64,000 nt of DNA from assembly GCF_000027125.1 (NCBI RefSeq), contig NC_017626.1. One strand, given 5' to 3'. Below are positions 57,087 to 60,000 of the stretch, piece after piece. The first letter of the stretch is position 1. Each line of letters begins with the position of its first letter. The position numbers and the translations under genes are program-made. A model generated the notes under the pieces. That model ran no database searches, had not been told where the DNA came from, and saw only the letters and a list, made by a program, of their open reading frames with translations. This DNA is from Escherichia coli 042 (GTDB lineage Bacteria; Pseudomonadota; Gammaproteobacteria; Enterobacterales; Enterobacteriaceae).

Positions 57087-60000
57087 TTGAGCCAGGAATA
57101 CACTGAAGACAAAGAAGTCACATTGACAAAGTTAAGTAGCGGCCGCCGCCTTCTGGAGGCGTTGCTGATCCTTATTGTCCTGTTTGCCGTCTGGTTGATG
57201 GCTGCCTTACTAAGCTTTAACCCTTCGGACCCCAGCTGGTCGCAAACGGCCTGGCATGAACCTATCCATAATTTAGGTGGGATGCCCGGTGCGTGGCTGG
57301 CAGATACGCTGTTCTTTATTTTTGGCGTGATGGCTTACACCATTCCCGTCATTATTGTCGGCGGTTGTTGGTTTGCCTGGCGTCATCAGTCCAGCGACGA
57401 ATACATTGATTATTTTGCCGTTTCGCTACGCATCATTGGCGTTTTGGCGCTCATCCTTACCTCCTGTGGTCTGGCGGCAATCAACGCTGACGATATCTGG
57501 TATTTTGCCTCCGGTGGCGTCATTGGCAGCTTACTAAGCACTACGCTACAACCACTGCTACACAGTAGCGGGGGAACTATTGCGCTGCTCTGCGTTTGGG
57601 CAGCGGGCCTGACGCTGTTCACCGGTTGGTCATGGGTGACCATTGCTGAAAAACTCGGCGGCTGGATTTTAAATATTCTTACCTTCGCCAGTAATCGTAC
57701 CCGTCGCGATGATACCTGGGTCGATGAAGATGAGTATGAAGATGACGAAGAGTATGAAGATGAAAATCACGGCAAACAGCATGAATCACGCCGTGCTCGT
57801 ATTCTTCGCGGCGCGCTAGCGCGTCGTAAACGGTTGGCGGAAAAATTCATTAATCCGATGGGGCGGCAAACAGACGCTGCGTTGTTCTCCGGTAAGCGGA
57901 TGGATGATGACGAAGAGATTACCTACACTGCACGCGGTGTGGCTGCCGACCCTGACGACGTCCTCTTTTCGGGCAATCGTGCAACGCAGCCAGAATATGA
58001 CGAGTACGATCCATTATTAAACGGTGCGCCAATTACCGAACCTGTTGCTGTAGCAGCTGCTGCTACCACGGCGACGCAAAGCTGGGCTGCACCGGTTGAA
58101 CCTGTGACTCAGACGCCATCTGTTGCCTCTGTTGATGTTGCACCTGCACAACCTACAGTAGCCTGGCAGCCTGTACCGGGGCCACAAACGGGAGAGCCGG
58201 TGATTGCTCCTGCACCGGAAGGTTACCCACAGCAGCCACAATATGCGCAGCCTGCAGTGCAATATAATGAGCCGCTGCAACAACCTGTACAGCCACAGCA
58301 GCCGTATTATGCGCCTGCGGCGGAACAACCTGTTCAGCAACCGTATTACGCAACTGCGCCGGAACAGTCTGCGCAACAGTCGTATTACGCCCCTGCGCCA
58401 GAACAATCGGTGGCAGGTAACGCCTGGCAAGCCGAAGAGCAGCAATCCACTTTTGCTCCACAGTCTACATACCAGACTGAGCAAACTTATCAGCAGCCAG
58501 TCGCTCAGGAGCCGTTGTACCAACAGCCGCAACCTGTTGAACAGCAGCCTGTTGTGGAGCCTGAACCCGTTGTAGAAGAGACAAAACCCGCGCGTCCGCC
58601 GCTTTACTACTTTGAAGAAGTGGAAGAGAAGCGAGCCCGTGAACGTGAACAACTTGCGGCCTGGTATCAACCGATTCCAGAACCGGTTAAAGAACCAGAA
58701 CCGATCAAATCTTCGCTGAAAGCACCTTCTGTTGCAGCAGTACCTCCAGTAGAAGCCGCTGCCGCTGTTTCTCCGCTGGCATCTGGCGTGAAAAAAGCGA
58801 CACTGGCGACGGGGGCTGCCGCAACCGTTGCCGCGCCAGTCTTCAGTCTGGCAAATAGCGGTGGACCGCGTCCGCAGGTCAAAGAGGGGATTGGCCCGCA
58901 GTTGCCACGACCGAAACGTATCCGCGTGCCAACTCGTCGTGAATTGGCGTCTTACGGTATTAAGCTGCCCTCACAGCGTGCGGCGGAAGAAAAAGCCCGT
59001 GAAGCCCAGCGCAATCAGTACGATTCTGGCGATCAGTACAACGATGATGAAATCGATGCGATGCAGCAGGATGAACTGGCACGTCAGTTCGCCCAGACAC
59101 AGCAGCAACGCTATGGCGAACAGTATCAACATGATGTGCCCGTAAACGCAGAAGATGCAGATGCTGCGGCAGAGGCTGAACTGGCTCGTCAGTTTGCGCA
59201 AACTCAACAACAACGTTATTCCGGCGAACAACCGGCTGGGGCGAATCCGTTCTCGCTGGATGATTTTGAATTTTCGCCAATGAAAGCGTTGCTGGATGAT
59301 GGTCCACACGAACCGTTGTTTACGCCAATTGTTGAACCTGTACAGCAGCCGCAACAACCGGTTGCACCGCAGCAGCAGTATCAGCAGCCACAACAGCCGG
59401 TTGCGCCACAGCAGCAATATCAGCAGCCGCAACAGCCGGTTGCGCCGCAGCAGCAGTATCAGCAGCCACAACAGCAGGTTGCGCCGCAGCCACAATATCA
59501 GCAGCCGCAACAACCGGTTGCGCCACAGCAGCAATATCAGCAGCCGCAACAGCCGGTTGCGCCGCAGCAGCAGTATCAACAGCTGCAACAACCGGTTGCA
59601 CCGCAGCCGCAGTATCAGCAGCCACAACAGCCAGTTGCGCCACAGCCGCAGGATACCCTGCTTCATCCGCTGTTGATGCGCAATGGTGACAGCCGTCCGT
59701 TGCATAAACCGACGACGCCGCTGCCTTCTCTGGATTTGCTGACGCCGCCGCCGAGCGAAGTGGAGCCGGTAGATACCTTTGCGCTTGAACAAATGGCGCG
59801 CCTGGTGGAAGCGCGTCTGGCTGATTTCCGTATTAAAGCCGATGTCGTCAATTATTCTCCGGGGCCGGTTATCACTCGCTTTGAATTGAACCTGGCACCG
59901 GGCGTAAAAGCGGCGCGTATTTCTAACTTGTCACGTGACCTTGCCCGTTCACTTTCGACGGTGGCGGTGCGTGTCGTTGAAGTTATTCCTGGCAAACCCT

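Follow-up and report, generated by a model that had tools for sequence, protein, structure and literature searches.

An eight-unit 39-bp repeat in the ftsK linker of Escherichia coli and its correspondence with the typing marker CVN001/ms07

The closest described counterparts of the repeat analysed here are markers used in MLVA. CVN001 reportedly goes back to Lindstedt et al. in 2007, as part of the generic E. coli MLVA (GECM-7/10), and ms07 and ms06 are said to come from the Shigella/E. coli MLVA of Gorgé et al. in 2008. The identity of these markers was taken here from later papers that reproduce the Lindstedt or Gorgé primers and names. Among these, a 2025 study lists "CNV001 (ftsK)" together with its primers (PMC11773471), another gives the original CVN001 primers and the formula that converts amplicon size into allele number, (PS-250)/39 (PMC8143711), and a third equates ms07 with CVN001 and provides the primers for both ms07 and ms06 (PMC4553163); ms07 primers were also taken from PMC8215070. 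In this literature, CVN001/ms07 has a 39-bp unit and is located in ftsK (PMC11773471, PMC8143711, PMC4553163).

A 39-bp VNTR of ftsK is likewise known in Salmonella, as STTR7 or SENTR2, and is present in 9.3 copies in S. Enteritidis. More distant relatives in kind are CVN004, in tolA, and similar VNTRs, which are also in-frame arrays varying the length of a protein spacer in disordered linkers of division or envelope proteins and serving as MLVA markers; CVN004 nonetheless belongs to another gene, encodes another peptide, and has a unit of 15 bp in E. coli and 45 bp in Salmonella. As for the FtsK linker itself, of about 650 aa, reviews describe it as unstructured and different in length among species, add that normal FtsK activity depends on it, and report contacts with FtsQ, FtsL, FtsI, and FtsZ.

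The window, i.e., the whole 64-kb stretch of E. coli DNA that was analysed, carries an ftsK gene whose product displays four Pfam domains, each well over its gathering threshold: FtsK_4TM (aa 20-191), FtsK_alpha (aa 879-979), FtsK_SpoIIIE (aa 987-1200), and FtsK_gamma (aa 1303-1363). These identify the protein as FtsK, and the identical gene of strain TUM1886 is annotated as ftsK in RefSeq (WP_000077077.1). Two tandem arrays are found in this gene, the second of which is called the main array below:

57087..61193, plus strand: ftsK coding sequence from the ORF list, TTG start, encoding the 1368-aa DNA translocase FtsK
58296..58412, plus strand: ms06 array, 3 units of 39 bp (2.8 copies according to TRF), with a PYYAPAxEQ motif
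59343..59654, plus strand: main array (CVN001/ms07), 8 in-frame 39-bp units, FtsK aa 753-856, unit map A-B-C-D-E-C-F-G
59721..60023, plus strand: FtsK alpha subdomain (Pfam PF17854, aa 879-979), the start of the translocase motor, 23 residues past the main array

A previous sequence-only reading of this DNA had reported eight 39-bp units at 59343-59654 encoding repeats of a 13-residue peptide, and unit dissection bears this out. When cut from position 59343, the array yields exactly eight units of 39 bp, ends at 59654, and is in frame 0 of ftsK; the units encode the 13-residue peptide and close variants of it, with the terminal unit ending in Asp (D) and the others in Tyr (Y). TRF reports a 39-bp period over 59343-59651 (7.9 copies, 87% matches, score 464), as well as a higher-order period of 117 bp, corresponding to three units (score 525). 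Since only two arrays reach a TRF score of at least 80 in the whole 64 kb, and both are in ftsK, the main array is not a chance occurrence.

The published primers fall on either side of this array, at the following sites:

59228..59248, plus strand: CVN001 forward primer site, exact match (59230 for the start of the original Lindstedt primer)
59733..59752, minus strand: CVN001 reverse primer site, 1 mismatch
59083..59102, plus strand: ms07 forward primer site, exact match
59728..59747, minus strand: ms07 reverse primer site, 1 mismatch, giving an ms07 amplicon of 665 bp

The primer pair listed in PMC11773471 matches exactly, at 59228-59248 and 59722-59743. CVN001 and ms07 primers each have a single match in the window, with 0 expected by chance. 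Flanking primer pairs, a 39-bp period, location within ftsK, and a variable copy number are thus all found at the main array, which shares locus, allele range, and frequencies with CVN001/ms07 and shows no substantive difference from it. There is accordingly very little doubt about the nature of the main array: a coding minisatellite of the P/Q-rich, intrinsically disordered linker of FtsK, at the same locus as CVN001 (= ms07) and represented here by an 8-unit allele. The earlier description of the locus as length-polymorphic and useful for strain discrimination was therefore sound, this marker having been in routine use since 2007-2008; the array is correctly recognized but ordinary, being an already known typing marker.

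Physical unit counts and published allele numbers differ by one at this locus. The CVN001 amplicon of the window, 59230-59752, is 523 bp long, and (523-250)/39 gives allele 7. Similarly, the ST131 strain EC958 has 7 physical units and the published ST131 MLVA profile gives CVN001 = 6, from which it follows that the Lindstedt allele number is the number of physical units minus one. In terms of typing, the window is thus CVN001 allele 7, ms07 allele 8, and ms06 allele 3.

Assembly errors classically arise at tandem repeats, and an array mis-resolved in the source assembly could in principle have produced the count of eight. The array is only 312 bp long, though, and its frame is intact. In addition, the ftsK segment of the window is identical in TUM1886 and Ch1, two independent complete genomes; taking the 801-bp segment that includes the array, identity with TUM1886 is 100% and about 170 complete genomes match at 99% or more. 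This level of agreement argues that the array is no artefact of assembly, an explanation that retains next to no probability. As a separate observation on the same window, no complete genome matches its first 25 kb above 99.1%, which means that the source strain is either missing from this set of genomes or mosaic.

Copy number at the main array was surveyed in two systematic samples of the 5,426 complete E. coli genomes, giving 118 usable rows, so that the frequencies below are sample estimates and not a census. BLAST queries consisted of the two flanks joined without the array, the span of the match then giving the array length. They replaced an 801-bp query including the array, which led to ambiguous joined spans and to partial matches in about one-fifth of the rows; the earlier sample obtained with this full-length query had 8 units in 6 of 40 genomes, which is more than the flank-only estimate. 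Among the 118 rows, 6 units (45 rows, 38%) and 7 units (50 rows, 42%) are the modal numbers, 8 units are found in 6 rows (about 5%), and the remainder have 3 (2 rows), 5 (4 rows), 9 (5 rows), 10 (1 row), or a non-integral number of units (5 rows). The whole range in complete genomes is 2-10 units. These frequencies resemble those of CVN001 in Swedish ESBL isolates, where alleles 5, 6, 7, and 8 account for 40, 40, 13, and 5%, respectively. The 8-unit allele of the window is hence a minority allele, at about 5% in our own sample and 13% in the Swedish set, and lies well within the range. In this light, the term "expanded" applied to the array by the sequence-only reading is loose: only one unit type is common to the window and to strain MG1655 (see below), and although few genomes have 8 units, alleles from 2 to 10 units were seen. 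About 80% of genomes have 6 or 7 units, a narrow mode for which stabilising selection and a clonal population structure are both conceivable causes.

Comparison with MG1655 shows where the length difference between the two proteins lies. The MG1655 ftsK gene (NC_000913.3, 933224-937213) is 3990 bp long, also has a TTG start, and encodes 1329 aa; the lengths of 1368 aa here and 1329 aa in K-12 given by the sequence-only reading both hold. Protein alignment reveals 9 substitutions and three separate 13-residue indels between the two FtsK proteins, in agreement with the view that the strain is not MG1655. Two of the three gaps are in the main array, where the window counts 8 units and MG1655 counts 6, not 8. 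The third falls about 1 kb upstream, in the ms06 array, with 3 versus 2 units. The proposal that the 39-residue difference equals three units of the main array was consequently right in its arithmetic (39 = 3 x 13) but wrong in placing all three units in one array: two are there, and the third is in ms06.

This upstream array corresponds to the published ms06 marker, with the same primers and the same 39-bp unit. The ms06 primer sites are at 58186-58205 (1 mismatch) and 58506-58525 in the window, and the resulting 340-bp amplicon, i.e., allele 3, is mid-range relative to the published 301-379 bp (alleles 2, 3, and 4). In a sample of 60 rows, 1, 2, 3, and 4 units were found in 1, 17, 24, and 18 cases, respectively; 3 units is therefore both the count of the window and the modal allele of this sample, and the alleles of 2-4 units are those published, with one additional 1-unit genome. 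The ms06 peptide of the window is unrelated to that of the main array, and ms06 contributes one-third of the length excess over K-12. An informal look at a handful of CDS lengths gave no sign of copy-number compensation between ms06 and ms07.

It could have been imagined that the main array alone grew by three units from a K-12-like ancestor through recent slippage, as the total difference is exactly 39 residues and this array is longer than its MG1655 counterpart. The position of the third 13-aa gap in ms06 refutes this scenario, which we regard as highly improbable. The unit types point the same way: the window reads ABCDECFG and MG1655 reads HIJEKL, so that a single type (E) is common to both, and the flanks of the array are about 98.8% identical, i.e., differ by about 1.2%. 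With one common unit type and this flank difference, neither an ancestor-descendant relation nor a direction of change can be deduced. The window and K-12 alleles are old, diverged variants and not the outcome of a recent expansion.

Alleles that are closely related to that of the window show directly how the array mutates. Among the matches listed, 53 of the 60 genomes whose flanks are nearest to those of the window (at least 99.2% identity, including ST69) have kept 8 units, indicating that the array is fairly stable within a lineage. Three deviant alleles of this lineage each correspond to the window allele minus one in-frame deletion: THO-008 lacks 234 bp, or six units, between units 1 and 7, this deletion being flanked by a 23-bp in-register microhomology; RM14516 lacks 24 bp, deleted between direct repeats of 10 bp located in unit 4; and Lstone01 lacks 9 bp (one QQP). 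Block duplications are also visible in the unit maps of other strains, such as ETEC6335 (ABHABH...) and A11 (AYAY...), and the presence of unit C at positions 3 and 6 of the window array fits the 117-bp, three-unit period. New alleles come from mispairing, either of one unit with another or of short direct repeats inside the array, by way of replication slippage or unequal, RecA-dependent recombination, two routes that sequence alone does not separate. The products are whole-unit deletions, duplications of blocks of two or three units, and sub-unit in-frame indels; each unit gained or lost alters only the length of the linker, by 13 residues, while keeping the ftsK frame. Since 39 bp is 13 codons, every gain or loss of a unit is in frame, and because internal microhomologies are in addition spaced in multiples of three, so are all products seen. 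Each of the 14 alleles retrieved from RefSeq is in frame and annotated as an intact ftsK, of 1290-1407 aa.

The linker is also covered by long open reading frames other than ftsK:

58971..59792, minus strand: 273-aa antisense ORF, codon-aligned with ftsK, a by-product of linker codon usage and not a gene
59320..59643, minus strand: 107-aa antisense ORF limited to the array, an Ala-rich repeat that is merely the array translated in another frame, a by-product
59296..59676, plus strand: 126-aa ORF crossing the array in an alternative frame, a by-product
58017..58670, minus strand: 217-aa antisense ORF, the second antisense ORF of the linker

The two longest antisense ORFs are explained by the codons of ftsK itself. 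Codons 312-628 and 630-948 span most of the linker, reach slightly beyond the array, and are devoid of TTA, CTA, and TCA, the sense codons that read as stops on the antisense strand; the 217-aa ORF is open because of the first of these stretches and the 273-aa ORF because of the second. The antisense ORFs are thus caused by PQ-rich codon usage and not by the repeats alone. The sequence-only reading was correct in pointing to such ORFs on the opposite strand, but not in making the repeats their sole source.

A mutable repeat within a coding region, together with long ORFs on the opposite strand, might also evoke a phase-variation (contingency) switch for ftsK or for an overlapping antisense gene. 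Against this, 16 of 16 alleles are in frame, including those with sub-unit indels of 9, 15, 18, and 24 bp, and products that are all in frame rule out a switch of the frameshift type. The antisense ORFs, moreover, follow from the missing TTA, CTA, and TCA codons and none is annotated in the RefSeq records inspected, where ftsK is the only gene annotated at the locus. Such a switch is almost certainly not what the array represents.

What is conserved in the main array is the peptide. Differences among units are mainly synonymous, with pS at 0.42 and pN at 0.04-0.05 (Nei-Gojobori, among units), and 8 of the 12 variable positions of the window array are third codon positions. All 68 non-terminal units carry Tyr at position 13. 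With its peptide conserved and its DNA drifted, the array does not consist of recent, identical copies, and this drift among units also leaves less perfect homology for slippage. These substitution patterns suggest purifying selection on the unit peptide, a PQ spacer punctuated by a Tyr every 13 residues; the peptide would belong to a flexible tether of constrained composition that links the membrane anchor to the motor. Copy number, on the other hand, is probably nearly neutral within a tolerated range. In the one allele swap located in the literature, made in S. Enteritidis with a two-repeat indel (84 bp, 28 aa), egg-white survival, the single phenotype assayed, was unaffected.

Similar arrays are present in other Enterobacteriaceae. 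A degenerate DNA pattern for a 12-residue motif located downstream of the array yielded FtsK loci from about 80 species, and 66 loci had enough upstream sequence. A tandem array is found at the same FtsK position in 32 of these 66 species loci, with periods of 39 bp (20 loci), 42 bp (5 loci), 36 bp (2 loci), or 45 bp (1 locus), and all arrayed loci combine PQ-rich sequence with an aromatic residue that recurs periodically. The 39-bp period is found in Escherichia, Salmonella arizonae, and many Citrobacter. In S. arizonae, for instance, 4.5 copies of a 39-bp unit end 12 bp before the HPLLMRNG motif. STTR7/SENTR2 and the main array share gene, position, and period, and have nearly the same peptide, which makes them orthologous; the Salmonella locus belongs to another genus and has its own unit variants and copy numbers. 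In the other 34 loci, among them those of Klebsiella pneumoniae and of the Enterobacter cloacae complex, the sequence is PQ-rich but irregular.

This distribution bears on whether copy number could be adaptively tuned in each lineage, linker length or the number of Tyr-PQ modules setting how septum closure is coupled to DNA translocation, or making multivalent contacts with proteins of the divisome. Purifying selection on the unit peptide (pN/pS of about 0.1), with its invariant Tyr, would fit such a role, as would the fact that PQ/aromatic arrays recur at this position in several genera, their units measuring 36, 39, 42, or 45 bp. Nevertheless, 34 of the 66 species loci, K. pneumoniae and the E. 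cloacae complex among them, do without a regular array, natural alleles of 2-10 units occur in apparently healthy isolates, the Salmonella allele swap was without phenotype, and no association between genotype and phenotype is known, all of which makes adaptive tuning unlikely compared with a tolerated range of copy numbers. A related and decidedly speculative proposal, which we consider improbable, is that the Tyr-punctuated PQ repeats form a selected multivalent "sticker-and-spacer" module beside the FtsK motor, with an aromatic residue at intervals of 12-15 residues, re-invented across genera of Enterobacteriaceae with differing unit lengths. If this were true, self-association, contacts with the divisome, or how far the motor reaches from the closing septum would depend on copy number. 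A pN/pS of about 0.1, an invariant Tyr, and recurrent arrays of 36-45 bp fit equally well with concerted evolution of a disordered tether constrained in its composition.

Beyond housekeeping, the finding matters little, as the locus is a standard MLVA marker. In practice, the long antisense ORFs over the FtsK linker are a consequence of its composition, and annotation should leave them out. For E. coli more generally, FtsK length varies through two independent 39-bp arrays, so that the total length of the protein cannot be used to count the units of either one. Finally, the in-lineage deletions with in-register microhomology provide a clean natural example of coding-minisatellite mutation.

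The eight-unit array at 59343-59654 (typing marker CVN001/ms07) is not the only repeated element in the stretch of ftsK (57087-61193, + strand) that encodes the linker of the DNA translocase FtsK and its border with the membrane domain. Three others lie upstream of it:

57723-57764, + strand: short acidic repeat rich in D, E and Y, with a period of 6/9/18, directly after the FtsK membrane domain
58296-58412, + strand: second in-frame 39-bp array, unrelated to the eight-unit array and published as marker ms06
59073-59114 and 59178-59219, + strand: duplicated 14-residue linker motif, just upstream of the eight-unit array

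The ms06 array comprises three units in the window versus two in MG1655, and accounts for one of the three 13-residue gaps that separate this FtsK from that of K-12; the sequence-only reading had equated all three with units of the eight-unit array. Its copy number varies among the 60 genome rows sampled, with one unit in a single row, two in 17, three in 24 and four in 18. The two copies of the linker motif are separated by 35 residues and, in an 11-residue form, both are kept in most of the FtsK loci recovered from Enterobacteriaceae. This conservation suggests that the motif may be a functional element of the linker, in contrast to the variable PQ arrays.

At the FtsK position orthologous to the eight-unit array, tandem units of differing length are found in other genera (loci L018, L023, L050, L052, L070 and L077):

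36-bp units: Leclercia MAG
42-bp units: Enterobacter sp. Bisph1, Pseudenterobacter, Kosakonia pseudosacchari and Superficieibacter
45-bp units: Leclercia adecarboxylata NCTC13032

Every one of these arrays is PQ-rich with periodic Tyr, and their differing unit lengths look like the product of either lineage-specific concerted evolution or repeated re-invention. In Escherichia albertii NBRC 107761 (L019), the array is degenerate upstream of position 4334, and a run of 11 alanines (QQQPAAAAAAAAAAAPQPQY...) stands in place of part of it.

Within E. coli, BLAST queries with the array flanks failed to find a match in only one of the 5,426 complete genomes of the collection. Eight flank matches fell on plasmid-typed records, such as the 88-kb NZ_CP134387.1, which carries ftsK; the plasmid label is probably wrong and the records pieces of chromosome. 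Strains TUM1886 and Ch1 match the ftsK segment at 100% identity, whereas the best identity for window positions 1-25000 (the ybjL-mdfA-dacC-potG region) in the same collection is 99.1%. Either the source strain is unsampled among these genomes, or it is recombinant along this stretch.

Finally, TTA, CTA and TCA are absent from ftsK codons 312-628 and 630-948, i.e., from most of the linker, so that the codon-aligned antisense frame is open over two stretches of about 320 codons. These yield ORFs of 217 aa (58017-58670, - strand) and 273 aa. Antisense open frames in PQ-rich regions are a general trap for gene callers.
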